A stretch of 41,032 nt of DNA from a virus. Positions within the stretch are counted from its first letter, which is position 1. Every line of letters begins with the position of its first letter. A program made the position numbers and the translations under genes. The notes under the pieces are model-generated. The model did no database searches, had not been told where the DNA came from, and saw only the letters and a list, made by a program, of their open reading frames with translations. Shown here in pieces: positions 93-41,032 of this stretch. The stretch lies in the UHGV virus genome UHGV-0278189; one strand, 5' to 3'.

Positions 93-611
93 GTGATGAA
101 ATTTAAAAAATGTCTTCTGCCTGTGGCAATGTTAGCGTCATTCACTCTGGCAGGATGCCAGTCAAATGCTGACGATCATGCTGCCGATGTTTATCAAACC
201 GATCAACTGAATACCAAACAAGAAACTAAAACCGTTAATATTATTTCCATTCTTCCCGCAAAAGTTGCCGTAGACAACTCCCAAAATAAACGGAACGCAC
301 AAGCCTTCGGCGCGCTTATTGGCGCAGTCGCTGGCGGTGTTATCGGCCACAACGTCGGGTCTGGCAGCAATTCCGGAACGACGGCAGGTGCAGTTGGCGG
401 CGGAGCTGTAGGCGCGGCAGCGGGTTCTATGGTGAATGATAAAACCTTAGTGGAAGGTGTTTCTTTAACCTATAAGGAAGGCACCAAAGTGTATACCTCT
501 ACCCAGGTGGGTAAAGAGTGCCAGTTTACGACAGGTTTAGCCGTTGTTATTACCACGACGTATAACGAAACGCGTATTCAGCCAAATACCAAATGTCCTG
601 AAAAGAGCTAA
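93..611 (+). CDS. yfgH: Host lipoprotein with glycine-zipper segment (YfgH-like)
   Basis: 172-aa ORF with signal peptide and LAGC lipobox, followed by a Gly/Ala-rich GxxxG stretch; length and N-terminus match my recollection of E. coli YfgH; lies outside the prophage. Confidence 0.6.
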   Translation: MMKFKKCLLPVAMLASFTLAGCQSNADDHAADVYQTDQLNTKQETKTVNIISILPAKVAVDNSQNKRNAQAFGALIGAVAGGVIGHNVGSGSNSGTTAGAVGGGAVGAAAGSMVNDKTLVEGVSLTYKEGTKVYTSTQVGKECQFTTGLAVVITTTYNETRIQPNTKCPEKS

Positions 612-626: not shown

Positions 627-1166
627 ATGAAGAAAGTTTTTCTTTGCGCCATCTTAGCCTCCTTAAGCTATCCGGCTATCGCCTCATCATTGCAGGATCA
701 ACTCTCTGCTGTCGCAGAAGCGGAACAGCAAGGTAAAAATGAAGAGCAAAGGCAGCATGACGAATGGGTCGCGGAGCGCAACAGGGAAATCCAGCAAGAG
801 AAGCAACGTCGCGCAAATGCCCAGGCCGCCGCTAACAAAAGAGCGGCAACGGCAGCGGCAAATAAGAAAGCTCGTCAGGATAAACTGGACGCCGAAGCCT
901 CTGCGGACAAAAAACGCGATCAAAGTTATGAAGATGAGCTACGCAGCTTAGAGATTCAGAAACAAAAACTGGCGCTGGCGAAAGAAGAAGCCCGCGTTAA
1001 GCGAGAAAACGAATTTATCGATCAGGAACTGAAGCACAAAGCTGCGCAAACCGATGTGGTGCAATCTGAAGCTGACGCCAACAGAAATATGACTGAAGGC
1101 GGTCGCGATCTGATGAAAAGCGTGGGCAAAGCAGAAGAGAACAAATCGGACAGCTGGTTTAATTAA
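627..1166 (+). CDS. yfgI: Host secreted Lys/Glu/Ala-rich coiled-coil protein (YfgI-like)
   Basis: 179-aa ORF with N-terminal signal peptide; AGGAGG-like RBS (caggagga) just upstream; adjacent to yfgH-like gene as in E. coli gene order (recollection). Confidence 0.5.
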   Translation: MKKVFLCAILASLSYPAIASSLQDQLSAVAEAEQQGKNEEQRQHDEWVAERNREIQQEKQRRANAQAAANKRAATAAANKKARQDKLDAEASADKKRDQSYEDELRSLEIQKQKLALAKEEARVKRENEFIDQELKHKAAQTDVVQSEADANRNMTEGGRDLMKSVGKAEENKSDSWFN

Positions 1167-1204
1167 TCGATGTTAGTAACTTCAATCCTATAATTCTTGA
1201 AGAT

Positions 1205-1237
1205 AAAAAACCCTCTGTAGTAACAGAGGGTTTTGTT
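1205..1237. terminator. Rho-independent terminator after yfgI-like gene (possibly bidirectional)
   Basis: aaaaaa-CCCTCTG-tagtaa-CAGAGGG-ttttgtt: 7-bp stem with A-run before and T-run after. Confidence 0.7.
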
Positions 1238-1383
1238 CATTCATAGTGCAGGGTCAAATCATTCCCACTCAATTATTTACGACAATCATAACCAATTGAG
1301 TGATAACATTTTTCCAAAGTTCAACTTTTCCCGTACCGTTTTATATACCGTCACCGGAAATCAGTGCCATGAAAAATACCATG

Positions 1384-1866
1384 CTATCTGGTCAGGGTGT
1401 CGTACTGTTTTTCGCAGACTCTTCCGGCTTCGGCTGCCCGGTCAGCATACTCTGCCAGTTGTCTGTTTCTCTCGAGAGATTTGCTGAGCACGTCGGCAAG
1501 CAAAACTCCGGTGTCTGCGGCTGACGACCCAGCGCCGACAATGGCGTTATACTGCCTGAGCTGCTCACGGATGGCAACGAGCTGTTGCTGCAACCTGCCA
1601 GCGCGAGCGGCAGCATCAAGAGCATCGCTGCGCGCCTGATCGATCCTCTGCTGCGCTTCACGTTCATTGGTCGCTTTCTCCTGTTCGTAGTACTGACGAA
1701 CTTTTTCTTCTTCGGCTTTGCGGTCTTCTTCCGCCTGCGCATACCCGGCATCGTACTGGCGACTGCCGTGTGCATTCCAGGCTACAACTCCTGATATGAC
1801 CAGAACAGCAAGCATCGCCATGATAACCAACTGTTTCCAGTATGCTTTTGCGAATGCCCAGATCAT
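1384..1866 (-). CDS. Rz-like inner-membrane spanin (i-spanin)
   Basis: 160 aa; N-terminal TM helix followed by charged coiled-coil (Ala/Glu/Arg/Gln-rich); start overlaps endolysin stop by 4 nt; last gene of lysis cassette. Confidence 0.7.
1392..1625 (-). CDS. Rz1-like outer-membrane lipoprotein spanin (o-spanin), embedded in Rz in another frame
   Basis: Internal Met of overlapping ORF 1392..1775 gives [16 protein letters not shown] (lipobox LAGC) and a Pro/Ser-rich 77-aa product; classic embedded Rz1 arrangement; ATG (cat on + strand) at 1623-1625. Confidence 0.6.
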   Translation of the reverse strand: MLLMLPLALAGCSNSSLPSVSSSGSITPLSALGRQPQTPEFCLPTCSANLSRETDNWQSMLTGQPKPEESAKNSTTP

Positions 1867-2492
1867 ACCGCCAGCACCTTACTGGCAGTGATGTATCGCG
1901 CGCGCCGGTCATCAATGCCGTTCCGGCCACCATTGATAAGCAGAGTTACACGTGCAATATCTCCGGTATACTTCATGCAGCCTTTGCTGGCGAAGAACCA
2001 CGCCGCGCTACGAGCCGCATATTCGTCCTGCGCCAGCAGTTCAGGGCTCTCCAGCAGGTCAACCTTCAGACCGTTTCCGCAATCACGATAGTTATTCAAA
2101 CCGGTAATCTGGATAAGTCCGCGCCCTCGGTAATTCCAGCCATCACCAGGGGCATTGTTCCCCATGCGTTTGCTGTACACCAGATTGGCAATCGCTCTCT
2201 GGCGCTCAGGTGGCAATGGTGGTTCGCCTGCGCGTCGCCCCAATGCGTTGGCCTGTCCCTGAGTGAGACGCCCAGCCCGAACAAAGTTAGCCAGTCCGCT
2301 GACGCTGTAGTTGAAATTCTCCTGCAACCGGGTGAAGCCTCCAGACTCATGCCCGACCTGAGCAATAAACATAGCCTGATCTTCTGGTTTGCTGATACCA
2401 AACTCTTTCATCGCAGAAGTTATATGCGAGAACCAGCGTGCGGCCAGTGCCTCGCTGATACCAGCAGCTCGCTGGAATTGTTTAATCTCCAT
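1863..2492 (-). CDS. Endolysin, glycoside hydrolase family 19 (chitinase-like lysozyme)
   Basis: Starts [13 protein letters not shown]...; motifs [24 protein letters not shown] typical of GH19 phage endolysins; start chosen at internal ATG 2490-2492 (ORF track extends to 2657); no signal peptide. Confidence 0.8.
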
Positions 2493-2790
2493 GTTTAGAC
2501 CTCGATACTTTGAAAATTTGAACGACGTTACCGCGCGTTTTAATAACCGCAGCAAGCATGACAGCGTTGATAATGACCTCGGATAAATCCACAGCCATTG
2601 GCGTACGTAACCAGATTGCATAGGCGACTCGAACAGGAATACTGGCCGCAGCAACAATCAGGAAATAAGCAAGCCATCCTCCCCACCTTCGGTGTTGAGA
2701 GCCGTTACGCCGGAATGTGACAACGCGAATTGCTATGCCAGTGCAAATAACTGCATTGGTGATAAGCAAAAAAAACTCATGCGTTACCAT
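2482..2790 (-). CDS. Small membrane protein, holin/antiholin-like
   Basis: 102 aa with two hydrophobic helices; overlaps holin stop and endolysin start; position in lysis cassette. Confidence 0.5.
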
Positions 2791-3181
2791 CGTCTTTTCT
2801 CCCCGGAATTAACTCGCGTGGATTATCGGAACGGTGATAGAGCCATATACCAATACGCACAGCGACAATTGCTGACACGAATGCGCCTGCAGAGAAAACA
2901 ATCCCTTTTTCAAAAGAGTCCTGCGTGATGGTAGGGATCAGGCTGGCTATGCCGATAAGAATTGATGCTGCTGGTTTGTAAAAGAGAAGGCCGCAAAGAA
3001 AGCTGAGCATCGACAGGAGCACCCGGCGACGGATGGGGTACTCTACTGCAGAGGTAACAAAAATTACCGCCCCAGCCAAAGCCCCTAAAGCAACCTCCGG
3101 AGGGACACCTGCAATAACCGCAGCAAGAGAACCAAAACTAAGCAACTGATTTAATTGCTCACTTGTTACTTGAGCAGACAT
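2777..3181 (-). CDS. Holin-like membrane protein
   Basis: 134 aa with several hydrophobic helices; first gene of lysis cassette, preceded by 306-bp AT-rich non-coding region. Confidence 0.55.
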   Translation of the reverse strand: MSAQVTSEQLNQLLSFGSLAAVIAGVPPEVALGALAGAVIFVTSAVEYPIRRRVLLSMLSFLCGLLFYKPAASILIGIASLIPTITQDSFEKGIVFSAGAFVSAIVAVRIGIWLYHRSDNPRELIPGRKDDGNA

Positions 3182-3461: not shown

Positions 3462-3490
3462 ACCCGCAAAATATTGCGGGCTTTTTTTTA
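3462..3490. terminator. Hairpin at 3' end of tailspike gene (weak terminator)
   Basis: cccgcaaaatattgcggg with A/T runs on both sides; overlaps tailspike stop codon; T-run is on the + strand side so function on the - strand is uncertain. Confidence 0.4.
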
Positions 3491-6400
3491 ACGTTCTTCC
3501 AGAGACTGAATCCGCTCTTTTATCTTATCCATTTCTCTGCGCTGCCATGCTGCCTCGATATAGAATAAGAGATCAGGTCTGACCCCCCATCTAGATCCTG
3601 CTGGCGTTATTTCAACGCGCTCAATGATGTCTTCCATTACCATCACTGGATTATCATCCTCATCAACAATGATGCTCCCGTCATTATCAGTCAGCGGCAT
3701 TTCCCTTTGGCCAGTAATGACGTCATCATATACTGCGGGATAATCGTCATAGCAAAGAAAGGCATAGCGGCATGTTGTGCTTTCTTCTTCCATGAGTCCG
3801 TGAGAAATAAGAACATCACGAAGTTGCTGCGCGATTACACCATGATGTATCCTCGCCCCTTCTTCCCCCTTTATAGCGACAGCGTTCAGCCATTTATAAG
3901 CGATATACCTGACGTCACCCCAGGCATCCAGCAATGCTTCGTCAGGAGAGACCGGCTCTGTCTTTAATGTTCCGTCACTGGTAACCACAGGATTGGAGCC
4001 AAGATAAACTGTCGAGAACCTGTTTCCCGGACCACCAAGAGCATTTACATTATCAAGATAAGGTTTAACATCTCCGTTCTCAAAAAGATGTTCGAGTGCG
4101 TTATATACCGCGCGACGTGGAGTACTGCTTCCGGAACCATGCAACGTTATCATTGCACCATCTGCTGAAGACGTTGTTTCACCGCCGCTAACGATTAATC
4201 TCTGAGCGGTAACATCATCAGACGGTACTTTCTTCGCAATAATGGCGTAATTACCCTCAAGTTTGACTTCCGCGCGAACTTGTCCTGATGTACCTGCATG
4301 GACAGTCAGTGACTGGACGGCAACATCATCTGTGAAATCAACGGGTACAGGAACCGTCCTCACGCCTGACGTCGACATAAAAGTAGGAAGCGTTCTGTTA
4401 GGAGTGGCTCCGTAGACAAAATCCCTTGAAACAAATTCTTCCTGTTTAATTTTCACCCTGAAACAATACAAATCAGCCGGGTGACCATCGTGAACATAAG
4501 GATATTTTCTGTTGTTATCCCCTATGCTCCATGGGTTTAGAAAGTCTTCCCCACCGAAAATGTAGTACAGCCAGTTGTCTTTGATACAAACTGAACCAAC
4601 ACCAACCGCAGAGTTAACTATTCCGCCCTGATAAATCTGATCAGTAACATTAACCCACTCTACATTATCCAGACTCCACTCATTGACGTTAACTCTGGTC
4701 ATAAATGTTCTTGGATAATTTCCTGCATAACGGTTATCAGGTTCTCCTCCTTCCCACTCACCAAATGCGCGCTCACTGCCAAAAATAATCAGCTCATCGC
4801 CAACTTTGGCAAAAGGAAGGTTTGAGTGATGAACATTATTTGGGAAGCGAAGAGAATTCCATGATGTACCTAAATCAGAGCTTCTGTGCAATGAACTACC
4901 GGGTTGAGTACTTAATGTCCCCCTGGTCGTCAGATACAGAATGCCATCATAATATTTTACACATGGCTCAGATGCATTCGCCTCATATTCTACAGGTATG
5001 CGTCTGCGAACAAAGCTACCAGGAGAACCGAAAGCATCAGAGAAATAGAGTATCCCAAGCTCGCGTGGACCAATATCACCATTATGGTAGCCAACAGCAA
5101 AACTGTTATCGCTAATCGTCGCAAAACTGTGAATCTCAGTAACAGGAGTGCTTCCGTCAACAAAAGAAGGAATAGTTCCAAGACTGGTTTTTCTCCATGG
5201 TGACGAGTGAAATGATGTGCCAAAACTCCAGTATCTACCCTCGTTATTCTGATCCACATCCTGGGTATTTTTCGTCGTAACTGTAAAGGTATTTTTATCA
5301 ATAACAGTAGTCACCGTCATATTCCCGGTAACACCTGTAACACCAGAGTTTGAGAAGTTGACAAAATCACCAGCAAATAATCCGTGATCAGTAATGCGAA
5401 TATAAGCGACTTGCTGATTTGCTGCTTTCGTTATACCACCATAAACGCGAAGGCTGCGACTCATTGGGCGATCCCACAACTCTGCAACCTGCAGTTTATT
5501 TCCGCTCACGGTCCGCGTCTCAATTACAGCAAAAAGGCGATTTCTGACAACCCCCATACTCATGCAGTGATAGTTAACTGTGGGATAGTTTTCATGTAAA
5601 TCTGTAAGCCATTCCGGCGTTGTCCAGGTCTTCCCGTCATCTCCTGAGCGAACCCATGCAACATGGAGGTTATTTACACCATGGCGGTCTCCAGCCATAA
5701 AAGGCGCATAGATGACATTGTCATATACAAACGTTTTATCCTGCGTCCAGGCGTTGTACCACGGTGTATCTGTAATTTTAAATAACTCTCCCTGGATAAA
5801 ATCTTCAGAAGCATAAAAAAGAGGTTGGCCCGGTATTCTCTCAAATAAAAAACGAGCATTTTTAAATCGACTGACATCCGGAAGAGTTGATACTTTAAAA
5901 GTAAGCCCTAATCCGTCAATTTTATAACCTGGAGATGAGGCTTCAAGGCACGCGCTTATTGCAGTGGAATCGTCATTTATACCATCACCAACAGCTCCAA
6001 AATCTTTGGGGCTAATAGCATCACGCATTTTATCCTGGAACGTTCGGTACACAGCCCCAGAACCATACTGAATAAACCAACCAAAACCACCAACAACCCC
6101 GGAGATTGCAGCATCGACATAATTACGCATTGAGCGATTATTTACAGCGTCCTGCTCAAATGATGGATCTGCAAGGTTAGAAATTTTGTTTTGCTTTGCA
6201 TCGTAATATTTTGCAAGCAAAGATGGTTTCATCAATGCACGTCTGAACCACCCAAAACATTGCTGGATCAGCATCGTCAGATAGTCAAAGGCATCTTCAT
6301 GCACCTCGGGGAAAAATTTTCCCTGATTACGAAGATCAGTCTCCTGCACCACATCAAGCACACGATCTATCGTAATTCGCCATCCAGCAGCAAGCGGCGA

Positions 6401-6607
6401 CGGAAGAACAACAGAACCGCCACTATAAGTGCCCGCCCCAGTTACCGTATAACCGGTATCCAGTACTAGTTCTGTTACGTTACCGTTAAGGTCAGACACC
6501 TGAACAACCAGGTCGGATTTTTTGAAAATACGGAAGGTATACGGAAATGATGTCGTAACGCCGTTACCAGTGTATTCGTTGTGGTCAACTTCGGTTGAGA
6601 CCGTCAT
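3488..6607 (-). CDS. Tailspike with Asp-box (BNR) beta-propeller-like region and C-terminal intramolecular chaperone-like domain; possible endosialidase
   Basis: 1039 aa; N-terminus MTVSTEVDHNEYTGNGVTTSFPYTFRIFKKSDLVVQV looks like a conserved particle-binding domain; two Asp-boxes (SGDDGKTW, SSDLGTSW); last ~160 aa resemble the self-cleaving chaperone domain of endosialidases and some tail fibers, with a Ser-x4-Lys pattern (TSDGTLK); GGAG RBS. Confidence 0.7.
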   Translation of the reverse strand: MTVSTEVDHNEYTGNGVTTSFPYTFRIFKKSDLVVQVSDLNGNVTELVLDTGYTVTGAGTYSGGSVVLPSPLAAGWRITIDRVLDVVQETDLRNQGKFFPEVHEDAFDYLTMLIQQCFGWFRRALMKPSLLAKYYDAKQNKISNLADPSFEQDAVNNRSMRNYVDAAISGVVGGFGWFIQYGSGAVYRTFQDKMRDAISPKDFGAVGDGINDDSTAISACLEASSPGYKIDGLGLTFKVSTLPDVSRFKNARFLFERIPGQPLFYASEDFIQGELFKITDTPWYNAWTQDKTFVYDNVIYAPFMAGDRHGVNNLHVAWVRSGDDGKTWTTPEWLTDLHENYPTVNYHCMSMGVVRNRLFAVIETRTVSGNKLQVAELWDRPMSRSLRVYGGITKAANQQVAYIRITDHGLFAGDFVNFSNSGVTGVTGNMTVTTVIDKNTFTVTTKNTQDVDQNNEGRYWSFGTSFHSSPWRKTSLGTIPSFVDGSTPVTEIHSFATISDNSFAVGYHNGDIGPRELGILYFSDAFGSPGSFVRRRIPVEYEANASEPCVKYYDGILYLTTRGTLSTQPGSSLHRSSDLGTSWNSLRFPNNVHHSNLPFAKVGDELIIFGSERAFGEWEGGEPDNRYAGNYPRTFMTRVNVNEWSLDNVEWVNVTDQIYQGGIVNSAVGVGSVCIKDNWLYYIFGGEDFLNPWSIGDNNRKYPYVHDGHPADLYCFRVKIKQEEFVSRDFVYGATPNRTLPTFMSTSGVRTVPVPVDFTDDVAVQSLTVHAGTSGQVRAEVKLEGNYAIIAKKVPSDDVTAQRLIVSGGETTSSADGAMITLHGSGSSTPRRAVYNALEHLFENGDVKPYLDNVNALGGPGNRFSTVYLGSNPVVTSDGTLKTEPVSPDEALLDAWGDVRYIAYKWLNAVAIKGEEGARIHHGVIAQQLRDVLISHGLMEEESTTCRYAFLCYDDYPAVYDDVITGQREMPLTDNDGSIIVDEDDNPVMVMEDIIERVEITPAGSRWGVRPDLLFYIEAAWQRREMDKIKERIQSLEER

Positions 6608-6710
6608 GTTAAATCTCCAGATAGTCGCAGCACCCGTTGCGCCGCATATCTGGTTATTCTATTACCTGAAAAACCACATATGGATAGAAAGACTGTGAAT
6701 ACGAATAGAT

Positions 6711-6727: not shown

Positions 6728-6802
6728 TTGCAAAACGTGCTGGATAGCAAACAAATTATTTGATACTGTATAAATATACAGTTATTGCATGGAGAAGATA
6801 AG

Positions 6803-7060
6803 ATGCAGCAGTATCACTATCCACTGGAAGACGGATTTACCGAAAGGATTCACACGCCGGGAGGCGTCAGATCACTGGTGGAGGGATCGCACTTGATGAA
6901 ATTACTCCGGGATCTCGATAAGGATGGATTTAATGTCGATGGCCCACTTGCCGAACTGACTGCACTGATTAACTACGTCACCAGCTCACAGATGTCTATG
7001 CAGGATCTGCAAACACATCTCGACTATTGTGCCGAACAATTACGAAAACAAACCACATAA
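6803..7060 (+). CDS. Small protein paralogous to the C-terminal domain of the antirepressor
   Basis: 85 aa from ATG 6803 (GGAGAA RBS at 6791-6796; ORF track starts at TTG 6785); aligns by eye with the C-terminus of the 8206-8898 product (shared LM.LL, DG, AELT, QTH..Y). Confidence 0.55.
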   Translation: MQQYHYPLEDGFTERIHTPGGVRSLVEGSHLMKLLRDLDKDGFNVDGPLAELTALINYVTSSQMSMQDLQTHLDYCAEQLRKQTT

Positions 7061-7066
7061 AGAAAA

Positions 7067-7082
7067 GGCCGCTCTAGCGGCC
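7067..7082. terminator. Bidirectional terminator between convergent genes
   Basis: GGCCGC-tcta-GCGGCC hairpin with A-rich and T-rich flanks; overlaps stop of 7082-7810 gene. Confidence 0.6.
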
Positions 7083-7810
7083 TATCGTTTCGCTTTGTGC
7101 TCGTCCCAGCACGTTTTGCACCATGCCATTAAGCCGTCCGCATTTTGATTATTAGGGTAAAAGCTAGTTCGTTTTCTGCGGACATTACAAATTGGGCACC
7201 ACTTCATATGGCGTGTATTCTTTGGGCCATCGAGACACCTTGCACACCACTTAGTCAATCCATCTGGATTTTTTGACGATTTCCTGAATTTTTCATATGG
7301 AAGGTTTATTCTGCATCGCAAGCACTGCTTGCTACCACTTGAAACTCTGTTAGCTGATTCTTCTTTTGGCGGCGATACAGAAGGTATTCTTGCTGGCTCT
7401 GATACTGCCTGAGGTGCTTTTTTAGATGACTGAGACGATATGTCATCACCAGGGAATCTTCCATGATATGCCGGACGCGTTGACACTCCGGGTGGAAGCT
7501 CAGCTGTAAACGGCTTTGGCTGAATCAGTTGCCTCTCTTTTGCTAACTCCTGCTGTTTATAATATGTCTGGATTACCGCGCTATCATAAGCAGGAGGTAC
7601 GGAAATATTAGGCGCATTATCTCCCGTTTTTTGAAACTGAGTGGAGGTGTGTTCTATCACCTGTGTACGATTAATCGTTATCTCCCCATCTTCAGTCTTT
7701 ATCGTTTTGTTATGATTAACGACCGTACGATCAGAGATCTTAGTCTTGTTCTGGTTGATAACGTAAATAATCACCGCAACCACACCAACAACTACCCAGA
7801 AAACTTCCAT
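7082..7810 (-). CDS. Single-pass membrane protein with C-terminal tandem CxxC zinc-ribbon motifs (function unknown)
   Basis: 242 aa; N-terminal TM helix (VFWVVVGVVAVIIYVI); C-terminus has four CxxC motifs (CLRC, CARC, CPIC, CKTC) in two ribbon-like pairs; GAGGA RBS; operator-like site 20 bp upstream. Confidence 0.6.
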   Translation of the reverse strand: MEVFWVVVGVVAVIIYVINQNKTKISDRTVVNHNKTIKTEDGEITINRTQVIEHTSTQFQKTGDNAPNISVPPAYDSAVIQTYYKQQELAKERQLIQPKPFTAELPPGVSTRPAYHGRFPGDDISSQSSKKAPQAVSEPARIPSVSPPKEESANRVSSGSKQCLRCRINLPYEKFRKSSKNPDGLTKWCARCLDGPKNTRHMKWCPICNVRRKRTSFYPNNQNADGLMAWCKTCWDEHKAKR

Positions 7811-8980: not shown

Positions 8981-9038
8981 AAAGCGTTTTTAATCTTCCC
9001 TTCAAAACGCGTCCTGTAGCCAAACATGGGAGGACGAA

Positions 9039-9671: not shown

Positions 9672-9676
9672 TAGAA

Positions 9677-9697
9677 GCCCGCAGCGCGGGCTTTTTT
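9677..9697 (+). terminator. Rho-independent terminator
   Basis: GCCCGC-agc-GCGGGC followed by TTTTTT. Confidence 0.8.
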
Positions 9698-9728
9698 GTG
9701 GACGAAACAAAAGTCAGTGCTACACTCA

Positions 9729-9756
9729 TTGACGCCACATTGAGGTGGCTTATAGA
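9729..9756 (+). promoter_or_regulatory. Putative sigma70 promoter for small secreted-peptide gene
   Basis: TTGACG (9729-9734), 16-bp spacer, TATAGA (9751-9756); lies between two terminators. Confidence 0.35.
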
Positions 9757-10813: not shown

Positions 10814-13800
10814 CTATTTCATCTGCTCTTCAACTTTATTTAGTAATGGTGATATCGCCCACAGATTCTGAAAAGGTAGCATTTTACGGACAGCGTGGGT
10901 TTGCTGGCTGTCAAATTCTCCGTTAAGTACACCATTTGCAACCGTCGCGGCATCACCGCCAAGATCAAAGGTAGGACCAAGTAAAGCACCAATAGCATTA
11001 CGACTCTGAAACCTTGATACCGGAGGCGCACCAAACATCGCGCCAAGACCAAACCTACCGCCGCTTATGTTCTCAACGGTATTCAGCGGCTCAGAGAGCC
11101 AGCCAAGCATTCCGCCCCGGTCGATCCCCTCTTTCACAAGGTTATTCCAGCTGTAGTCGATATCGCGACCGCTTAACTTCTGTTTCATCATATAGACCAT
11201 TGAGCCAAGCGCAATCGTGCCAAGCGCACCAAGATAGAATGAAGCATCGCCCTGCTGGATACCAGATACCAACACCCTGTTATGCTGTGCGAAGATAAAC
11301 GTTTTGAACTGCGTGATCATCTTCCAGCCTTCTTTACTAAAAAACAGCGGTGTATCACCTACGCCAGGCGTTACAATCACTGAGTCTACATCTTTCAGCA
11401 CTGCAGACTGGAAAATCTCTCTAGCGAAACGGTCATCCCACAGATGACTATGCCCGGTTAACAGCCCGTCCATATCCTCTCCGTGCTTCCCGAATTGCTC
11501 CCCGATTCGGCGCAGAACATCTTCATTGATGCCGACCTGTGCCATCTTCCGCATTTCACTTTTGGCGAGCGTGCCACCAGCAGAAACCTGGCGAGCCGCG
11601 TCAAGTATCCTCGACTGCACTATCATCCCGGACCATGATTTAAGTGCGCTGTTCCACTGATTCATCAGCGTCCAGTTACCGAATTTCTGCGTCATCCAGT
11701 TCAGGCCTCGCTCAGCGGCGCTTCTCCGGCTATAGGGGTCAGTAAGATCCGCTATAGCCTTTGTACGCGTAGACAGGACATAATCAAGCCCAACGGCCAT
11801 TTCTCGCAAATCCCTGGTTGCAATTTTCACTGAGTCCATATTTTTAAGCATGCTTACCATTGGTCCGAGAGATTTTCTCAGGCCATGCTGCATCATCGGT
11901 CGCATCAGATCAGTTGCAGCGGAGACGGTCATTCCACCAAGCAAACGGAGGAAGTTAATATTCCTAGCAACTCGCCCGGCACGAACAAAGAAACTGCGTG
12001 GATCTTGAGGTGCGCCGTAAGTACCAAGCAGTCGGTCACGCATAGCCGTAATATCCCTAATATCAGCCTCCCGTTGCTTCTCAAGAGCTGCACGTCGTTT
12101 AGGTGTTTTAGCCTCTTTTATTAGCCGGGTATATTCCTCACTAACCTGACGGATTTGCTCCCCCATATCTTTACGGCCAAACTGCGCAGTCAGCTCAATT
12201 TCTGGTGCCACCTGCCGGAGATAACTTTCCATGATGTAGTTAACATCTGATTCAAGAAAATCTTCTATACGCTCATCAGGAATAAGCAGCGTTCGGCTTT
12301 TAGTGAAACCAGCCCGACCAACGAGTCTCTCTGGGATAATATCGGCTGGTACAAGCCCGGAAGGTGCGCCTATTATTTTATTCACGATCTCGTCAGCAGC
12401 GTCCTCTGCTTCCTCTCGGGATAGAGGCTCCATCTGCTTCAGTGCTCGCTCGCGGCTTGCATTCAGCCTTGTGGTTGAATTTGCCCGTTTTTGCAGTCGG
12501 CGAAGCTCAGAACGATATTTCCGTGGATTATCCAGCAACTCCATATGGCGCTGATAGACAGGAAGCTCACTCTTTGCCTGCGCTATATCATCAAGGCGTG
12601 TTTTAAGGTCAGAGCTTTCTTTCATCATTCTTGCCTGAAGTTTTTCTGATGAAGTCTCGGCCAACTCTTTTTCTATTCTTGTAAGACGCGCCTGTGTGTC
12701 AGTCTCCTGAGATATAAGCTTATTTCGTTTATCCAGTTCTTCCATGAGTAGAATTTTTTTACCAGACCATTTCTCCGCTTCAGCGATTTCACTAGCGAGA
12801 GCATCAGCGCGCGGTGCCGATTCCTCTGCAGTTTTTAGCAATGAATTTATCCTTTCAATTCGCTGACCTGCTTTGTCAGCACCTTTGGCACTAATCCCTT
12901 GTATCCAGTTGGCAATTCGCCCTCTGAATTCAGTGCGGTCGGAAAGTATCTTATCGAACTTATAAATGCGGGGAAGATAACTTTTCGCCGTCACGACATC
13001 GATATCCTCAGGAAGGATCCCCAGTTCCTGCATACGGGCTTTTGTGGTCTCGAAAATGGGGCGGATTCTGGCGGCTGCTTGTGAAACCTCAGGAATATCA
13101 CTCTGATCACCACGGCGCATAGCCATGCCAACAGCTTCATTGAAATCAATAAAGCTCATCCTCTTCACGCCGCGGGCGCTGACAGATTTGCTGTACTGCT
13201 GGTAAGCATCACGAGTGGCTTCCATCTGCTTATAAAGCATGGCGTCGTATTGCTTAATCTTAGTCTCGACTGCCGTAAACGTAGCCAACCCCTCATCATT
13301 TTTGGCGAAGAAATAGTTATTTTCGGCAAGCTGCTGGTTAATCTGACGGGAGACAAGAGATGGTGATTGCGCCAAGCGGCCAGCAGGAGTGACACTCAAC
13401 GTTTTGTTAGCAAGTCCAAGTCCAGCGAGCTGTTCCTGATCGAGTGTGGTATTGAAAACCTGAGCTGCACCAATGCTTTGAGGAGAATCCATACCTCGCA
13501 AATGATTACCTACTGAGTTAACCACTGCCTCGCGCGCGCTAGGTCCAGCAAGTAGCTGTGCACCAGCACCAAGGATCCCACCAACGAGAGCATCAACAAC
13601 AACGTTCGATACGCTCTCCATCGGTGAGCGAGCTTCCTGAGTGGCCTGCAATGCGGCCTCTGAAGCAACACTGCCAGCAGCATTGGCTAAAGCAAAACGT
13701 CCGGCTGTTTCTGCAATACGACCGCCACGAACGACAGCGCCGAACGGAATAAACATAGAAATCGCATTGAATGGATCTGCTAATCTCATTGCTACAGAAG

Positions 13801-14203
13801 AGACTGTACCAGCAAATCCCAAGCCTGAATTGTATTCCATGTCAGCTCTCTGCTGATCGATTCGATGTTTAATTGCCATTGTTTCTTCAGGCGAACCGGA
13901 GTTGATAAACGAATCTGCAAAATCTTCATAGCCTTTAATATCTGCTGCATCGTTATCAAATGGGTTATATCCTTCAATCCTGTCAAACTGACTGAAAGGA
14001 GCACTGGCAATAAAGCTACCCAGCGTGTTATCTATACGAAATGCTGCTTGTCTAGACCTTTGAACGCGTTGATCACTGGTAAATGGGTTCACAGCAGAAA
14101 GCAAAGAAGGTGTTTCCATATAGAAATTACTGTCATCAGGTGCTGCTATTTGCTGAATATCCTCGCCAAGCAACTCTTTAGGATCCTGTTCATATATCGG
14201 CAT
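10814..14203 (-). CDS. Large internal virion/ejection protein (T7 gp16-like position)
   Basis: 1129 aa; last and largest gene of the core-protein series after tail tube genes; start overlaps upstream gene stop. Confidence 0.5.
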   Translation of the reverse strand: MPIYEQDPKELLGEDIQQIAAPDDSNFYMETPSLLSAVNPFTSDQRVQRSRQAAFRIDNTLGSFIASAPFSQFDRIEGYNPFDNDAADIKGYEDFADSFINSGSPEETMAIKHRIDQQRADMEYNSGLGFAGTVSSVAMRLADPFNAISMFIPFGAVVRGGRIAETAGRFALANAAGSVASEAALQATQEARSPMESVSNVVVDALVGGILGAGAQLLAGPSAREAVVNSVGNHLRGMDSPQSIGAAQVFNTTLDQEQLAGLGLANKTLSVTPAGRLAQSPSLVSRQINQQLAENNYFFAKNDEGLATFTAVETKIKQYDAMLYKQMEATRDAYQQYSKSVSARGVKRMSFIDFNEAVGMAMRRGDQSDIPEVSQAAARIRPIFETTKARMQELGILPEDIDVVTAKSYLPRIYKFDKILSDRTEFRGRIANWIQGISAKGADKAGQRIERINSLLKTAEESAPRADALASEIAEAEKWSGKKILLMEELDKRNKLISQETDTQARLTRIEKELAETSSEKLQARMMKESSDLKTRLDDIAQAKSELPVYQRHMELLDNPRKYRSELRRLQKRANSTTRLNASRERALKQMEPLSREEAEDAADEIVNKIIGAPSGLVPADIIPERLVGRAGFTKSRTLLIPDERIEDFLESDVNYIMESYLRQVAPEIELTAQFGRKDMGEQIRQVSEEYTRLIKEAKTPKRRAALEKQREADIRDITAMRDRLLGTYGAPQDPRSFFVRAGRVARNINFLRLLGGMTVSAATDLMRPMMQHGLRKSLGPMVSMLKNMDSVKIATRDLREMAVGLDYVLSTRTKAIADLTDPYSRRSAAERGLNWMTQKFGNWTLMNQWNSALKSWSGMIVQSRILDAARQVSAGGTLAKSEMRKMAQVGINEDVLRRIGEQFGKHGEDMDGLLTGHSHLWDDRFAREIFQSAVLKDVDSVIVTPGVGDTPLFFSKEGWKMITQFKTFIFAQHNRVLVSGIQQGDASFYLGALGTIALGSMVYMMKQKLSGRDIDYSWNNLVKEGIDRGGMLGWLSEPLNTVENISGGRFGLGAMFGAPPVSRFQSRNAIGALLGPTFDLGGDAATVANGVLNGEFDSQQTHAVRKMLPFQNLWAISPLLNKVEEQMK

Positions 14204-16950
14204 TATTTGCCCCCTGCGTATATATTGCTCGGAAGGTAATTGGCTGAACCATAACCGAATGGTTTGGTCAGATCTGGAGGAGTATATCCATCTTTATTGC
14301 TGAACTGCGGCAGCGGATTGCCTTCTCTCCGCACTCTAGCCTCATCAACACGCTGTTGCTGGAACTGAATGGTTTGCCTGTACATTGGAGATGTCAGCTG
14401 ATCCGGCTTGAAACGAACAGGGAGACCATTTTCTCCAATATAATTTCTCGGTTCTATCGCTCCGTTTGCGTCAGGCTGTAAAACCATAACAGCATAACTC
14501 CTATCCCTTGCCGTAAGGCCATCAGAAACAAGTATTAAGTCCGTATCACTGCGAGGACCGCCAAAGGATTTTGATTTAAGCTCGCGTTTTTCCTGCTCCC
14601 ACTGCCCCTGTATCCAGTTACCAGCACCATTATTTACTCCGTACAATGCCTCAGGTGCATACTTCATAACCTCTGCTTTGCCATTAACCGTAGAAACTCC
14701 CCAGGTGGTTCTGATCATGGCATTGGTCATTTTCTCAGCCTGTTCTGCATCGCCACCTGTCTGTACAAAGTTAGCATCGTAAATTGTCTGGTAATCTCGC
14801 TGATAGGCCGCATTTGATTTTCCTGGATCGGTAATATCCGGAGACCACGAACCAAAGGAAGTCAGACTGCTGGCGTTATTTTGTGCAGCAGTTACCCTCG
14901 CCGCGACATATTTTTTGTCTCGCATGGCAGTGGAAAGCATCTGTTTCATTCGGTCATCCTGTTGGAACACCTGACTGTAAGCCATATCAACAGCCTTATC
15001 CTCCGGCACGCCAGCGCGGGAATAATCGTAAACCTTGCCATAAAATGCCATCGTACTTTTATCAAGTGTTGCCGCTGCCGCCGGATTATTATCGAATAAC
15101 TGACCGTAGAATTTTGCCATCGGGACAACCAGCGCAGGATCTCTTGATGTTGCTCCACTGTTAAGCATTGTTTTAACCTGAGTTGGTATCATGCCGCTTT
15201 TAGTTGTGACGGTGACCAGTGTATTGATGCTCTGCGGATCAGATATGGAAAACGAAGGCGCGATATCCTGCGCGAAATAACGGTCTACCGCTGCCTGATT
15301 GTTTTTGTCGTTCGGGTCCAGCGGGAAGTTATTTTGCATTGAAGACACGAACCTGTTTCTTCCCTGCTGAATCTCCCACTCCCTATCCATCTCTTTAAAT
15401 TTGGCCTGCATTTTCTCCCAGCGTTGCTGGTTAGCAGCAAATCCAGGAGCATTTGGATCCTGTGGACGTAAACGTTCAAGAATGTCTTGTCGTCCTTCTG
15501 GAGTGAGGTCTTTAGCGGCACCAATGACACCTCCATATTGTATCTGCGCCTGCATATCCTTCCACTTCATAGCGCCAATGCGCGGACCATTGGCCCGGAT
15601 AAAATCGTCCTCAGAAGGTAACTTCTCAGGTTTCAATCCTTCATCAAGGGCTGAATATGCATCTTTAACTACGGTGCTAAGCTGGTCCGCATACTGCTGG
15701 CGGTACTGATTTCTCAGCTCATTAGCCTGCCTCAATGCCTGTATTTGCATTTGAGGGCTCATAGCATCAAATGCCGCATTGCCCGTATAACGCTTAGGTG
15801 AATCAAGGTTAGTTAGACCAAGGGCTGCCGAGATACCAGTTTCAAGCTGTTCGGTGCTATAAGGCATACTGCCATTTTCGTGTTTAATAATCCCAGCACA
15901 TAAAGCAGCTAGTGTCTTTGGGTTAGAGATATCAAGCTGATCATTCTCCCCAACACCAAGCTCACCACACAATGCCCTAATATAAGCATCAGTATTATTA
16001 CCATCACTAGCCGGAGCATAGCGATTAACAATCTCGCTAACGGTGTCATAGCCTTGACGCTGGTAAGACAACATATTTTTACCCAACGCGCGGATTCCAT
16101 GCTCAGGGGTAGCAAACGTTGCAAAACGTCCATCGCTACCGATCTGACCTTCCCACGGGTTAGATTTGCTCGCTTCAATATTACCAGGGTTATTATTACG
16201 TAAACCACGAGCATCCAATGAATTACCATGTGATATTGCACGACTCACACCATCAAGATCCCCTGGCTCTCCATTAACCTGAAGAAACTCGTTGTATTTT
16301 TGAGCGATATTTCCTATCCATGCTTGCTGCCCCATTTGTTCCTTGAGCTGAGTTTTCTGCTGAACACGCCACTCATCAGGAAGCCCATGCGCATCAGCGT
16401 ATTGATCAATAGATTCAAATCGCTGCTTGGCTAAATCGACAAATGCTTGGTTATCGCTATATAGCCCCGCAGACTGAGTGACAGCCAATGCATTTCCTGA
16501 CAAATACGTTTGATCTTGGAATTGCTGAAACTGCCCAACTTCATATCGACGTGCCTGATTGTAATAAGACTGCATAGACTGCTGGAGTTGAAAGGATAAT
16601 TTATTCCTTTCCTCACTTTCAGGGATTGAGCCTAATAATGCCTGAGCCCTTTCCTGCATATTTTTCATAACAGCGTCACTCTGACCAAGAGCGTTTTTAC
16701 CCTGTTTAGAAATCAGCCCATTTTCAGGGTTGTTAATCTGGTCATCTGCAAATTGGTTAAATTGCAGTAACGCCTCCTGGGCCATAGCAACATTCGCTTT
16801 CTGCCTGGCTTCACCATATGCCACCGCATACTGATCTGCGACATTCGCCAGCACCTGACCTGCTTGAGGAACATCGAAGGTCTGAAAACCACCGGTTTGC
16901 ACACCACGACTTTGCACCTGGCGTCCGGATGTAGTAGGAACAACAGGCAT
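14203..16950 (-). CDS. Internal virion/ejection protein (T7 gp15-like position)
   Basis: 915 aa; Gln-rich; coupled to flanking genes. Confidence 0.5.
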   Translation of the reverse strand: MPVVPTTSGRQVQSRGVQTGGFQTFDVPQAGQVLANVADQYAVAYGEARQKANVAMAQEALLQFNQFADDQINNPENGLISKQGKNALGQSDAVMKNMQERAQALLGSIPESEERNKLSFQLQQSMQSYYNQARRYEVGQFQQFQDQTYLSGNALAVTQSAGLYSDNQAFVDLAKQRFESIDQYADAHGLPDEWRVQQKTQLKEQMGQQAWIGNIAQKYNEFLQVNGEPGDLDGVSRAISHGNSLDARGLRNNNPGNIEASKSNPWEGQIGSDGRFATFATPEHGIRALGKNMLSYQRQGYDTVSEIVNRYAPASDGNNTDAYIRALCGELGVGENDQLDISNPKTLAALCAGIIKHENGSMPYSTEQLETGISAALGLTNLDSPKRYTGNAAFDAMSPQMQIQALRQANELRNQYRQQYADQLSTVVKDAYSALDEGLKPEKLPSEDDFIRANGPRIGAMKWKDMQAQIQYGGVIGAAKDLTPEGRQDILERLRPQDPNAPGFAANQQRWEKMQAKFKEMDREWEIQQGRNRFVSSMQNNFPLDPNDKNNQAAVDRYFAQDIAPSFSISDPQSINTLVTVTTKSGMIPTQVKTMLNSGATSRDPALVVPMAKFYGQLFDNNPAAAATLDKSTMAFYGKVYDYSRAGVPEDKAVDMAYSQVFQQDDRMKQMLSTAMRDKKYVAARVTAAQNNASSLTSFGSWSPDITDPGKSNAAYQRDYQTIYDANFVQTGGDAEQAEKMTNAMIRTTWGVSTVNGKAEVMKYAPEALYGVNNGAGNWIQGQWEQEKRELKSKSFGGPRSDTDLILVSDGLTARDRSYAVMVLQPDANGAIEPRNYIGENGLPVRFKPDQLTSPMYRQTIQFQQQRVDEARVRREGNPLPQFSNKDGYTPPDLTKPFGYGSANYLPSNIYAGGK

Positions 16951-37547: not shown

Positions 37548-37847
37548 GTGAGAAAGTTAAGCCGACTTGAAAAATATCACATGAATAAGGTTTCAATGCG
37601 TAGTCCGTCAAAGATTGTCGCCGTTACTCCTGCGGCGATAGAGATCGAAAAACGCGCGATTGAAAGAGAAAAAAAAGGGCAGTTCCGCATTGCCGCTCAC
37701 CTTTGGCTTCAGTGTATGGATGTTGCTTCTGGTGATGTTGAGCGAGCAAGGATTGCGGTTCGCAGGGACCAATGTATCACAAAAGGTAACGGCCTTCGCC
37801 GTGGCGACTATAGCGGCATAGGATGTTGTGGGGTGGTTTATGAATAA
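37548..37847 (+). CDS. Hypothetical small regulator (PerC-like, tentative)
   Basis: 99 aa from GTG 37548 with GAGAGGG RBS; EKKGQFRIAAHLW loosely resembles the PerC-family core; weak. Confidence 0.4.
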   Translation: MRKLSRLEKYHMNKVSMRSPSKIVAVTPAAIEIEKRAIEREKKGQFRIAAHLWLQCMDVASGDVERARIAVRRDQCITKGNGLRRGDYSGIGCCGVVYE

Positions 37848-38943
37848 TCAAAACAATAATGTAAAAGGTAATATCATGAGCAAGGTAGGCGATTATTTCT
37901 TTGAATTTCCCGCATCACGAGGAACGCAGGGAAGCACTGTAATACTTATGATGACAGTACCAGCAAGAGCACTATCGAGAGTATTGGCAACCGACAATAC
38001 GGGAAGTACCCTTGAACGTTCTCAACGTGAAATTAATCCAACCAGGGTAAAAAAGTTTTATCAATATTTAGTCAACGCTTACGAGAAAAAGGAACCATTT
38101 ATTGTTCCACCATTGGTCGGAAATTGTAACTCAGAAATAGAGTTCCATGAGATTGGAAATACTAATGTCGGTTTAGCTAGATTTCCTATGGATGCAGAAA
38201 TAAAATTATTTGATGGACAGCATCGTGCTGCAGGATTAGCTGAGTTCTGCCGTAATTATGGCGAAACAATTATGATTCCTCTTATGCTTACGCATAACCT
38301 TCCTTTGAAGGCGCGTCAGCAGTTCTTTTCTGACATTAATAATAATGTTTCAAAACCATCTGCAGCAATTAATATGGCGTATGACGGACGAAACGATGTT
38401 GCCCAAGAAATGGTGTCTTTCCTGTCGCAACATGACACTTTTGCAGAAGTCACTGACTTCGAGCACAACGTTGTTCCGTCAAAGTCAAACATGTGGGTGA
38501 GTTTCAAAGCATTAAGTGATTCAACATCAAAATTTTGTATTCATAATGGGAAAAAACTAGAAATTGGTAACATCGAGTCAGTATGGGAATCATGGTTATG
38601 TCTTACACAACTAGAAGCAATTCGCCATGGTACAAAGCAATCAGAATACAAAAGAGAATATATCCAGTTTCATGCAGTGATGATTAACGCTTTTGGCTAT
38701 GCTGTTCAGCAAATGATGGTTAATCACTCAATAAAAGAAATAATTTCAATGATTGAAACATTATGTGCAAATACTGACTTCGCAGAAAGAGAGAATTTTT
38801 TCCTAATGGATAATTGGGTTGGGATCTGCACGAAAGCAAGCCAGGAAAAACTATCAGTTATTGCCAATGTAGCAGCACAGAAAGCGGCAGCAAACAGGCT
38901 GATACAAGCCTTTACCAAAGGAAGTCTGGGAGCAGAACAATGA
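37840..38943 (+). CDS. DGQHR-motif protein (DndB-like, ParB/Srx-fold family)
   Basis: 367 aa from first ATG 37840 (ORF track starts GTG 37828; alternative ATG 37876); contains FDGQHRAAGLAEF; AT-rich; stop overlaps next start (ATGA). Confidence 0.65.
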   Translation: MNNQNNNVKGNIMSKVGDYFFEFPASRGTQGSTVILMMTVPARALSRVLATDNTGSTLERSQREINPTRVKKFYQYLVNAYEKKEPFIVPPLVGNCNSEIEFHEIGNTNVGLARFPMDAEIKLFDGQHRAAGLAEFCRNYGETIMIPLMLTHNLPLKARQQFFSDINNNVSKPSAAINMAYDGRNDVAQEMVSFLSQHDTFAEVTDFEHNVVPSKSNMWVSFKALSDSTSKFCIHNGKKLEIGNIESVWESWLCLTQLEAIRHGTKQSEYKREYIQFHAVMINAFGYAVQQMMVNHSIKEIISMIETLCANTDFAERENFFLMDNWVGICTKASQEKLSVIANVAAQKAAANRLIQAFTKGSLGAEQ

Positions 38944-39587
38944 AAAAATACACGCTAATCTATGCAGATCCACCCTGGGTATACCGGGACAAAGCCGCAG
39001 ATGGTAATCGCGGTGCCGGTTTTAAATATCCGGTTATGAGTGTGCTGGATATCTGCCGCCTTCCTGTGTGGGATTTGGCCGATGAAAACTGTCTGTTGGC
39101 CATGTGGTGGGTGCCAACACAACCACTCGAAGCACTAAAAGTTGTTGAAGCCTGGGGATTTCGTCTGATGACCATGAAGGGCTTCACGTGGATAAAATGT
39201 GGTAGTCGACAACCAGATAAACTGGTTATGGGGATGGGACACATGACTCGCGCCAACAGTGAAGATTGCCTGTTTGCGGTAAAGGGAAAACTACCTCCGC
39301 GCATTAATGCAGGTATCGTTCAGTCATTTACCGCACCGCGGCTTGAGCATTCAAGAAAACCAGATGTCGTTCGTGAAAAACTTGTGCAATTGTTAGGCGA
39401 TGTTTCTCGCATTGAACTGTTCGCCCGCCAAACGTCTCATGGCTTCGATGTTTGGGGTAATCAGTGCGAAGACCCAGCAGTGCAACTACACCCTGGATAC
39501 GCGTTGTATATTGCCGGATTAACAAATGCATTCAGCAATGCTCCGCTGTCACCAACAGACAACCAGGGGCGGGAGCGTGCAGCATGA
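38940..39587 (+). CDS. MT-A70-family DNA methyltransferase (probable N6-adenine)
   Basis: 215 aa from ATG 38940 (MKKYTLIYADPPWVY); DPPW catalytic motif near N-terminus; ATGA overlaps with both flanking genes. Confidence 0.7.
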   Translation: MKKYTLIYADPPWVYRDKAADGNRGAGFKYPVMSVLDICRLPVWDLADENCLLAMWWVPTQPLEALKVVEAWGFRLMTMKGFTWIKCGSRQPDKLVMGMGHMTRANSEDCLFAVKGKLPPRINAGIVQSFTAPRLEHSRKPDVVREKLVQLLGDVSRIELFARQTSHGFDVWGNQCEDPAVQLHPGYALYIAGLTNAFSNAPLSPTDNQGRERAA

Positions 39588-39781: not shown

Positions 39782-41032
39782 TTATTCCCCCGCCATCCAC
39801 TTCTCAAACTTCGACGGGGAGAACGGAATCAGATCCGTATGCTCCCCGTCAATCCAGGAATCAATCATATCGGCCCACTGCTGCAACATGTAGGCGCGCT
39901 GTCTGGCGTATTCCGCTTTGTTATATACGGCGCGCACACCTTTCTGCTCATGTGCCAGAGCCTTTTCAATCCAGTCTGAAGGATAACCAGCCTCATGCAA
40001 CAATGTACTGGCTGTACGGCGCATATCGTGTACGGTGAAGCCCTGAATATGCTCACCATCTTCATTTATTATTTTCACCGTTCTGTCGATCAGAGAGTTC
40101 AGCGCGGCATTAGATAATGGCTTCCGGAAATTGTAACGACCAGGAACCAGATATTCACTTCCACCAGCGCACATCTGCAATCCGACCAATATATCCTGAG
40201 CCTGTTTAGGCAGGTAAATAACGTGCGCCCGGCTTCCCTTCATGCGGTCTGAAGGAATGGTCCATGTCCATTTTTTAAAATCTATTTCATCCCACGTTGC
40301 GTTGGTGAATTCGCCTTTACGAACCATAGTGATAAGCACCAGCTTTAAAGCCATTTTCATAGTGCCCATAGCACCAATGGCATCCAGCGTGCGGAAGAAC
40401 AGGCCAATTTCTTCTGGTGTCAGTGTTCGCTCTCTTGGTTTAAATATGGCGATAGACGAAGGTTTAATGTCAGCCGCAGGATTAAACAAACCATGACCAC
40501 GGTCATTGGCGTGACGGTATACGCTACTGATGATCTCCCTGGCCTGCACTGCTGTTGCCCAGCCACCGCGTTCGACAATCCGGTCACACAAATCACGAAC
40601 CATCGATGTGGTAATTTCAGCCATCATTTTATTGCCAAGAACCGGAAGTATGTCACGGTCGATCACCGCCTGTTTCATTGCGCGGGTACTGTCAGCCAGG
40701 ATGACGTGTTTCATATAACTGTCGGTATGTACCGCAAACGTCTCGGCACCACGAATCTTTTTGATACCGTCACGTTTAGCCGCAGCCGGTGACTGGCCTG
40801 CTTTAAGCAGCTTCTTTGCAGCAATCAGTTCTTCTCGCGCTTCTGCCAGGCTGATACCGTCACGCCCATACTGCCCGATTACCAGCGTTTCGCGGCGACC
40901 GTTGATACGGTAGTCGTAGCGAAACGAGACCGTGCCTGACGTAAGCACAGCTACATACAGCCCGTCACGATCGGAGACCTTGTACAGTTTGTCCTGCGGC
41001 TTGAGGTTTTTTAATTTTGTATCGGTAAGCAC
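39782..41032 (-). CDS. Tyrosine integrase (N-terminus cut by window edge)
   Basis: 416 aa in window; C-terminal catalytic region HDMRRTASTLLHEAGYPSDWIEKALAHEQKGVRAVYNKAEY with the conserved Tyr; N-terminal LTDTKLKNLKP typical of P4-type integrases. Confidence 0.85.
   Translation of the reverse strand: MLTDTKLKNLKPQDKLYKVSDRDGLYVAVLTSGTVSFRYDYRINGRRETLVIGQYGRDGISLAEAREELIAAKKLLKAGQSPAAAKRDGIKKIRGAETFAVHTDSYMKHVILADSTRAMKQAVIDRDILPVLGNKMMAEITTSMVRDLCDRIVERGGWATAVQAREIISSVYRHANDRGHGLFNPAADIKPSSIAIFKPRERTLTPEEIGLFFRTLDAIGAMGTMKMALKLVLITMVRKGEFTNATWDEIDFKKWTWTIPSDRMKGSRAHVIYLPKQAQDILVGLQMCAGGSEYLVPGRYNFRKPLSNAALNSLIDRTVKIINEDGEHIQGFTVHDMRRTASTLLHEAGYPSDWIEKALAHEQKGVRAVYNKAEYARQRAYMLQQWADMIDSWIDGEHTDLIPFSPSKFEKWMAGE

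Follow-up and report, generated by a model that had tools for sequence, protein, structure and literature searches.

Escherichia coli strains with the K1 capsule rank among the main causes of meningitis in newborns and of extraintestinal infections in birds and in the urinary tract, and endosialidase tailspikes, which also serve as reagents for the removal of polysialic acid, decide which phages can attack them. The closest described systems include endoNF, the gp17 tailspike of phage K1F (PDB 1V0E, 3GVJ/K/L, 3JU4 and 3GW6), and SiaK1 (endoN) of the P22-like prophage CUS-3 (Lederbergvirus), the record of which carries the entry 'endo-alpha-sialidase activity, evidence IDA, PMID 16689790'. A further relative is ORF7 (QTH80017.1) of vB_EcoP_ZX5 (Uetakevirus), a phage that, according to its report (Pathogens 2022, PMC9782041), forms plaques on an O87:H52:K1 strain and also lysogenises it, integrating at guaA. 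That report lays out the ZX5 tailspike as an N-terminal tail-fibre-like domain, an endosialidase and an intramolecular chaperone, and calls its N-terminus T7-like.

We analysed a 41,032-nucleotide stretch of DNA (UHGV virus genome UHGV-0278189; here the window), which is a temperate epsilon15-like podovirus (Uetakevirus) prophage inserted into an E. coli chromosome at the guaA 3′ end, beside yfgI. The best matches of its first 20 kb among complete E. coli genomes are 98–99% identical. The window holds a complete Uetakevirus gene set (integrase, terminase, portal, capsid, ejection proteins and lysis cassette), and its lysis cassette, virion genes and integrase are collinear with those of ZX5 and of the prophage in the O2:K1:H7 avian pathogenic strain E18055. 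The tailspike gene lies with the immunity/antirepressor region to one side of it and the lysis cassette to the other, an arrangement collinear with that of ZX5, a phage assigned to Uetakevirus. As set out below, we consider it very probable that the product of this gene is a self-cleaving endosialidase that acts on K1 polysialic acid.

The tailspike frame is open throughout its 3,120 nt, and the PHROG family phrog_1171, 'tail spike protein', spans aa 1–1039 of the product (coordinates of all features are given in Table 1). Because this strongly supported coding frame covers the entire stretch, we took the plus-strand open reading frames within the gene (for example, 3707..3967 and 4822..5115) to be mechanical. 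Directly 3′ of the stop codon lies a hairpin (3463–3480), the T-run of which is on the plus strand, opposite to the strand of the gene; we therefore do not claim it as a terminator of the tailspike transcript.

Table 1 Features of the tailspike gene and its prophage; positions are those of the window.
Feature	Position	Strand	Details
Tailspike gene, complete	3488..6607	-	Endosialidase precursor, 1039 aa; ATG start; stop codon 3488-3490
GGAG, Shine-Dalgarno-like	6615..6618	-	7 nt 5′ of the ATG at 6607; read from sequence
Particle-binding (anchor) module, Uetakevirus/epsilon15 type, aa 1-203	5999..6607	-	94.6% identity to phage HEMP4
Endosialidase N-terminal extension, aa 205-271	5795..5995	-	PF12218 (End_N_terminal), E=5.9e-32, full length
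Six-bladed beta-propeller, catalytic, aa 272-721	4445..5794	-	PF12217 (End_beta_propel), E=3.7e-233, full model 1-367
Asp-box 1, SGDDGKTW, aa 321-328	5624..5647	-	Aligned with K1F endoNF aa 362
Beta-barrel inserted into propeller, aa 383-465	5213..5461	-	PF12195 (End_beta_barrel), E=6e-46, full length
Asp-box 2, SSDLGTSW, aa 576-583	4859..4882	-	Aligned with K1F endoNF aa 610
Stalk, endosialidase tail-spike domain, aa 722-876	3980..4444	-	PF12219 (End_tail_spike), E=8.4e-78; ends at Thr876
Predicted cleavage motif TSDGTLK, aa 876-882	3962..3982	-	Predicted cut between T876 and S877
C-terminal intramolecular chaperone/autoprotease domain, aa 877-1039	3491..3979	-	PF13884, E=1.7e-10; PDB 3gw6
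Block common with CUS-3 siaK1	3531..5909	-	Gene nt 699-3077, aa 234-1025; 12 differences in 2379 nt
Attachment-site core ATTGAGTGGGAATGATT, left end of the prophage carrying the tailspike gene	1257..1273	-	Core identical to that reported for vB_EcoP_ZX5

A first-pass annotation had proposed a candidate endosialidase with a sialidase-type beta-propeller on the strength of two Asp-boxes in the central region, and both the motifs and the fold assignment were borne out. All four phage endosialidase Pfam domains, together with Peptidase_S74, matched the tailspike with scores well clear of their cut-offs, and the endoNF crystal structures 1v0e and 3gvl matched aa 205–876 with E=0 and 65.7% identity. 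The pattern S-x-D-x-G-x-[TS]-W occurs twice, column for column with the Asp-boxes of K1F endoNF; in 200,000 shuffles of the tailspike protein the motif arose by chance at 0.0015 per shuffle and was never seen twice in one shuffle. We also checked 11 endoNF residues named as catalytic or critical (PMC12632334), namely H350, R549, E581, R596, R647, Q330, D331, H527, S528, K585 and N699, and found all of them conserved, with H309, R515, E547, R562 and R613 of the tailspike corresponding to the first five (H350, R549, E581, R596 and R647). Judged by its sequence, the region from aa 205 to aa 876 is a family-typical endosialidase, in which an N-terminal extension is followed by a propeller, interrupted by a beta-barrel, and then by a stalk, and its predicted activity is the endo-cleavage of alpha-2,8-polysialic acid. 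In the stalk, the equivalents of endoNF R837 and S848 are kept and Q853, which in endoNF forms part of a polysialic-acid binding site, is replaced by Met, the residue that CUS-3 also has at this position.

The C-terminus, which had been described as chaperone-like and self-cleaving, matched Peptidase_S74 with a score of 41.4 bits (cut-off, 22), and the endoNF chaperone structure 3gw6 matched aa 757–1038 (E=1.4e-93). The domain itself thus stands, but the range first given for it, 3491–3976, was one codon short, the end being at 3979. The Ser-x4-Lys pattern read at TSDGTLK was likewise sound: T876, S877 and K882 align with T910, S911 and K916 of endoNF, the Ser/Lys pair of which is a catalytic dyad (PMC3742443). 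The 1v0e alignment stops at T876, the equivalent of endoNF T910, and in the K1F record, which annotates the mature peptide, the stretch equivalent to aa 877–1039 is the released gp17-CTD. Autoproteolytic release of the tailspike C-terminus is predicted, and the mature protein is expected to end at Thr876.

EndoNF and the window tailspike have the same order of domains, beginning with the N-terminal extension and ending with the chaperone, and the catalytic and cleavage residues are identical, with identity over the chaperone being 53.9%. Relative to endoNF, the window tailspike has two insertions, one of 7 aa (FVDGSTP, aa 478–484) and one of 8 aa, the latter within the chaperone domain. The two proteins differ at the N-terminus, which in endoNF is of the T7 gp17 type (22.7% identity to the window tailspike). 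The N-terminal particle-binding domain was correctly regarded as conserved: beyond the phage HEMP4 match, aa 1–166 are 67–71% identical by tblastn to epsilon15-like and phiV10-like tailspikes, including those of Salmonella phage 65FD (71%), O157 typing phage 10 (69%) and, also within this range, Enterobacter phage Tyrion. In addition, phrog_5662 and phrog_1640 match aa 1–204, and the N-terminus of the Dpo31 tailspike (PDB 28lx) matches aa 1–209 (E=6.6e-36). Pfam reported no T7-tail-fibre N-terminal domain in the tailspike at E≤0.01, so that the anchor assignment rests on the tblastn, PHROG and PDB 28lx matches. By homology, aa 1–203 are the module by which Uetakevirus tailspikes attach to the tail.

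This tailspike is already known, with an identical allele in RefSeq and a 99.1% identical one in a published phage. The gene in E18055 is 100% identical in nucleotides over its full length, and its product, WP_021524409.1, which also occurs in related prophages, is annotated 'endosialidase catalytic beta-propeller domain-containing protein'; many K1 genomes have this gene annotated. Outside the tailspike gene, the E18055 prophage differs from the window, with segments between about 9 and 17 kb that do not align. The ZX5 gene shows its 99.1% nucleotide identity over 3,120 nt, with 6 aa differences in the product, and 23 of the 29 nucleotide differences fall in the first 783 nt. ZX5 and the window prophage are alike in genome type and guaA attachment core, whereas a 242-aa open reading frame (7082..7810) and a DndB-like gene (37828..38943) are present in the window and absent from ZX5. 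Counting as carriers those complete E. coli genomes that hold at least 80% of the tailspike gene, we found 72 among 5,426, including strains named O2:K1:H7, O1:K1:H7 and O7:K1. These K1-named carriers and the plaquing of near-identical ZX5 on a K1 strain favour the K1 capsule specificity originally suggested, and the host strain of the window would, going by these relatives, also have a K1 capsule.

By analogy with endoNF and SiaK1, three chains would fold together with the C-terminal domain as the nucleus. After trimer formation, Ser877, activated by Lys882, would cut the Thr876/Ser877 bond and free the chaperone of ~163 aa. The mature 876-aa trimer on the virion would then bind alpha-2,8-polysialic acid, and the propeller active site (E547, R562, R613, H309 and R515) would cleave the polymer internally. 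Cleavage of the capsule would allow the phage to tunnel through it to the outer membrane, which would restrict the phage to K1-encapsulated E. coli.

Differences between the window and its relatives allow other readings of the gene. The several internal segments in which the window prophage departs from those of ZX5 and E18055 could mean that the prophage is defective and the tailspike an intact-looking relic, no longer a virion protein and with no present function. We regard this as very unlikely, given that the 3,120-nt frame is open and its product differs by only 6 aa from the tailspike of the viable ZX5, that the catalytic and cleavage residues checked are all kept, and that the Uetakevirus gene set is full.

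Slighter still, in our estimate, is the chance that the tailspike actively binds or degrades a polysaccharide with another effective specificity. It might, for example, recognise the K92-type polysialic acid, in which alpha-2,8 and alpha-2,9 linkages alternate, depend on a given state of O-acetylation, or bind its substrate while cleaving little of it. Identity to endoNF of only 65.7% over the mature part and the change to Met at Q853, the endoNF stalk binding residue mentioned above, would fit such a shift, as would the fact that K1 strains vary capsule O-acetylation through the neuO gene of CUS-3, which the window prophage lacks: the heptanucleotide repeat of a neuO-like capsule O-acetyltransferase is absent from the whole window, the surroundings of the tailspike included, and blastn, tblastx and tblastn gave no match in the window to the CUS-3 neuO region or its 258-aa open reading frame. 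Against this, the catalytic block is near-identical to that of CUS-3 SiaK1, for which the annotation cites direct assay evidence of endo-alpha-sialidase activity, the host of ZX5 is K1, and the named carriers of the gene are K1 strains. A self-cleaving endosialidase directed at K1 polysialic acid thus remains our strongly preferred reading.

The relationship to CUS-3 is one mildly new point in an otherwise known picture. At the amino-acid level the propellers of SiaK1 and the window tailspike are 99.6% identical, and the two proteins have the two Asp-boxes, the active site and the Ser/Lys pair for self-cleavage in common; in contrast, the SiaK1 N-terminus is of the P22 head-binding type whereas the window tailspike has the Uetakevirus anchor, and they also differ in the ~30 aa with which the endosialidase part begins and in the last 14 aa. 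CUS-3 further has a phase-variable neuO adjoining siaK1. The block that the two genes share diverges abruptly at both sides, with one breakpoint inside the endosialidase N-terminal extension and the other 14 codons 5′ of the stop. CUS-3-type genes occur in 154 of the 5,426 complete E. coli genomes, compared with the 72 of the epsilon15-like type, and at least 14 genomes carry both. With 12 differences in 2,379 nt, abrupt breakpoints on both sides and these doubly carrying genomes, we lean towards the view that the endosialidase cassette (gene nt 699–3077) was exchanged very recently between the P22-like CUS-3 and epsilon15-like lineages, two unrelated lines of temperate podoviruses that both inhabit K1 E. 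coli, probably through recombination in cells lysogenic for both. The papers that we consulted make no mention of this cassette relationship between CUS-3 and epsilon15-like prophages.

The window copy of the tailspike is nothing new in kind, its catalytic core matching one annotated with direct assay evidence. It does, however, belong to a second, epsilon15-like endosialidase prophage that is common in K1 strains besides CUS-3. If the exchange took place as proposed, it would be a natural and datable swap of an enzyme-only cassette, in which the anchor and the extreme C-terminus stay lineage-specific. A near-identical, sharp-bordered cassette of this kind is of modest value for understanding the movement of receptor-binding modules from one phage lineage to another and for designing phage therapy against K1 strains.

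The tailspike gene encodes a protein that fits S-x-D-x-G-x-[TS]-W at SGDDGKTW (aa 321–328) and SSDLGTSW (aa 576–583), the two Asp-boxes claimed in the first-pass annotation; across 200,000 shuffles of the tailspike the motif arose at a mean rate of 0.0015 per shuffle, and no shuffle contained it twice. When aligned with full-length gp17 of phage K1F (endoNF) and with SiaK1, the endosialidase of the P22-like prophage CUS-3, both boxes coincide with their K1F counterparts (aa 362 and aa 610). A Pfam search returned full-length matches to the domains listed in the table, and a search of solved structures matched endoNF (1v0e, 3gvj/k/l and 3ju4) to aa 205–876 with E=0, stopping precisely at the final residue of the crystallised mature enzyme. 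These structures and the four End_ domains bear out the proposed endosialidase.

Features of the window prophage and its tailspike (aa, residues of the 1,039-aa product)
Feature	Position	Strand	Detail
yfgH	93..611		host gene at window start
yfgI	627..1166		host gene at window start
Attachment core ATTGAGTGGGAATGATT	1257-1273		left end of prophage
Tailspike gene	3488..6607	-	single long ORF, 1,039 aa, ATG start
GGAG	7 nt upstream of tailspike ATG	-	read from sequence
End_N_terminal	aa 205-271		Pfam E=5.9e-32
End_beta_propel	aa 272-721		Pfam E=3.7e-233
End_beta_barrel	aa 383-465		Pfam E=6e-46
End_tail_spike	aa 722-876		Pfam E=8.4e-78
Peptidase_S74	aa 877-937		Pfam 41.4 bits, cut-off 22
Integrase ORF	39782..41032		reaches last base of window

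The proposed chaperone-like C-terminus also held up, with Peptidase_S74 scoring above its cut-off, 3gw6 (the endoNF stalk-plus-chaperone structure) matching aa 757–1038 (E=1.4e-93), and T876, S877 and K882, within TSDGTLK (aa 876–882), aligning with endoNF T910, S911 and K916. PMC3742443 describes the Ser/Lys pair as the dyad that catalyses self-cleavage, and the K1F record annotates a mature peptide and a released C-terminal domain matching these parts of the tailspike. All features named in the earlier reading were located where it had placed them, except that the C-terminal domain spans 3491–3979 rather than 3491–3976. Eleven endoNF residues named as catalytic or critical by a study that applied deep mutational scanning to the K1F tailspike (PMC12632334) are kept: H350, R549, E581, R596 and R647 (tailspike H309, R515, E547, R562 and R613), and Q330, D331, H527, S528, K585 and N699 (Q289, D290, H493, S494, K551 and N665). 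Domains, residues, structure matches and genomic context thus support the first-pass interpretation as a whole.

By analogy with the studied homologues, three tailspike chains would assemble with the C-terminal domain as nucleus; once the trimer has folded, Ser877, paired with Lys882, would cut the Thr876–Ser877 bond, releasing a 163-aa chaperone. The mature trimer, fixed to the tail by aa 1–203, would then bind and endo-cleave α-2,8-polysialic acid, opening the K1 capsule. We infer trimerisation, cleavage and activity with strong confidence because the propeller shares 99.6% identity with the one in CUS-3 SiaK1, an enzyme with direct assay evidence cited in its record, and because a tailspike with 6 aa differences serves the viable phage vB_EcoP_ZX5 (ZX5), which forms plaques on and lysogenises an O87:H52:K1 strain.

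Sequence likeness identifies aa 1–203 as the Uetakevirus anchor. The HEMP4 tailspike is 94.6% identical over this stretch and remains common up to '...MRD-ISP-D', after which its C-terminal part is unrelated, placing the module junction at about aa 203/204. The N-terminus is 67–71% identical to those of Salmonella phage 65FD, O157 typing phage 10 and Enterobacter phage Tyrion, and the Dpo31 tailspike N-terminus (28lx) matches aa 1–209 (E=6.6e-36).

From the attachment core onward, gene content marks the window as an epsilon15-like (Uetakevirus) prophage. The core is identical to that published for ZX5, at the 3′ end of guaA, and is followed by the lysis cassette, tailspike, antirepressor/immunity region, ejection proteins, capsid, portal and terminase, then replication, repressor and recombination genes and the integrase. 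A search across the window did not find neuO, the capsule O-acetyltransferase gene that CUS-3 has. The ejection-protein region (9000–17500) is mosaic relative to ZX5 and the related prophage of E. coli E18055; most of 9–17 kb, including ORFs 10814..14203 (1,129 aa) and 14203..16950 (915 aa), lacks blastn-level alignment to either. A tRNA-Arg (anticodon TCT) gene lies at 26585–26661 (+), and a tRNA-Arg is also annotated in the E18055 prophage.

Divergent from the tailspike gene, ORF 6803..7060 (+; 85 aa) matches phrog_450 (unknown function) and, weakly, an anti-repressor family. A LexA-box-like perfect palindrome, CTGTATATTTATACAG, at 6766–6781, 21 nt upstream of its ATG, suggests an SOS-controlled small antirepressor acting as a prophage induction switch. 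This ORF stands between the tailspike and ORF 7082..7810 (-; 242 aa), which lies about 470 nt upstream on the tailspike strand, is followed by a terminator-like hairpin (7066–7083), and is found in E18055 and absent from ZX5. It matches phrog_6762 (unknown function), with weak zinc-ribbon-type matches (endonuclease VII, Lar-like) at its C-terminus. Inserted in the early region, a lone DndB-like gene (37828..38943, +; Pfam DndB E=3.7e-46, PADLOC DndB E=2.4e-37) adjoins an MT-A70 methyltransferase ORF (38814..39587). The ZX5 and E18055 prophages lack this DndB-like gene, with no alignment across about 37847–38943, and its role may be an accessory one in defence or in DNA modification.

The endosialidase assignment is correct but already known: E18055, an O2:K1:H7 APEC strain, carries a 100% identical gene annotated 'endosialidase catalytic beta-propeller domain-containing protein' (WP_021524409.1), the ZX5 paper gives the same three-part architecture for ORF7 (99.1% identical), and phrog_1171 covers the whole protein. 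At least 80% of the gene occurs in 72 of 5,426 complete E. coli genomes, among them CE10 (O7:K1), APEC O1, APEC O18, IHE3034 and IAI39. In the N4-like Escherichia phage PBM-2 (PV029541.1, 448–4093), the annotation divides an endosialidase homologue between two neighbouring CDSs, called 'tail spike protein' and 'tail fiber protein', with the break just past the first Asp-box. This pattern points to a frameshift, or to a split introduced during sequencing or annotation.

The relation to CUS-3 siaK1 may be unpublished. The two genes have the enzyme, stalk and most of the chaperone in common, with 12 differences in nt 699–3077, but the likeness breaks off sharply on both sides of this block, before nt 699 (nt 652–698 hold 26 differences) and after nt 3077; aa 204–233 and the last 14 aa are therefore lineage-specific. 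The CUS-3-type junction occurs in 154 of the complete genomes and the Uetakevirus type in 72, and at least 14 carry both prophage types (IHE3034, CE10, APEC O18, EC69, ST95-32, N1, N21, N54, FDAARGOS_1303, AREA_486, MS20659, OZ546925, OZ546911 and CUVET21-H2), which in IHE3034 (NC_017628.1) lie at 2717182 and 2886457. The common block could reasonably have arisen by recent recombination between prophages resident in one cell, and we lean towards a recent exchange of the endosialidase cassette with CUS-3.
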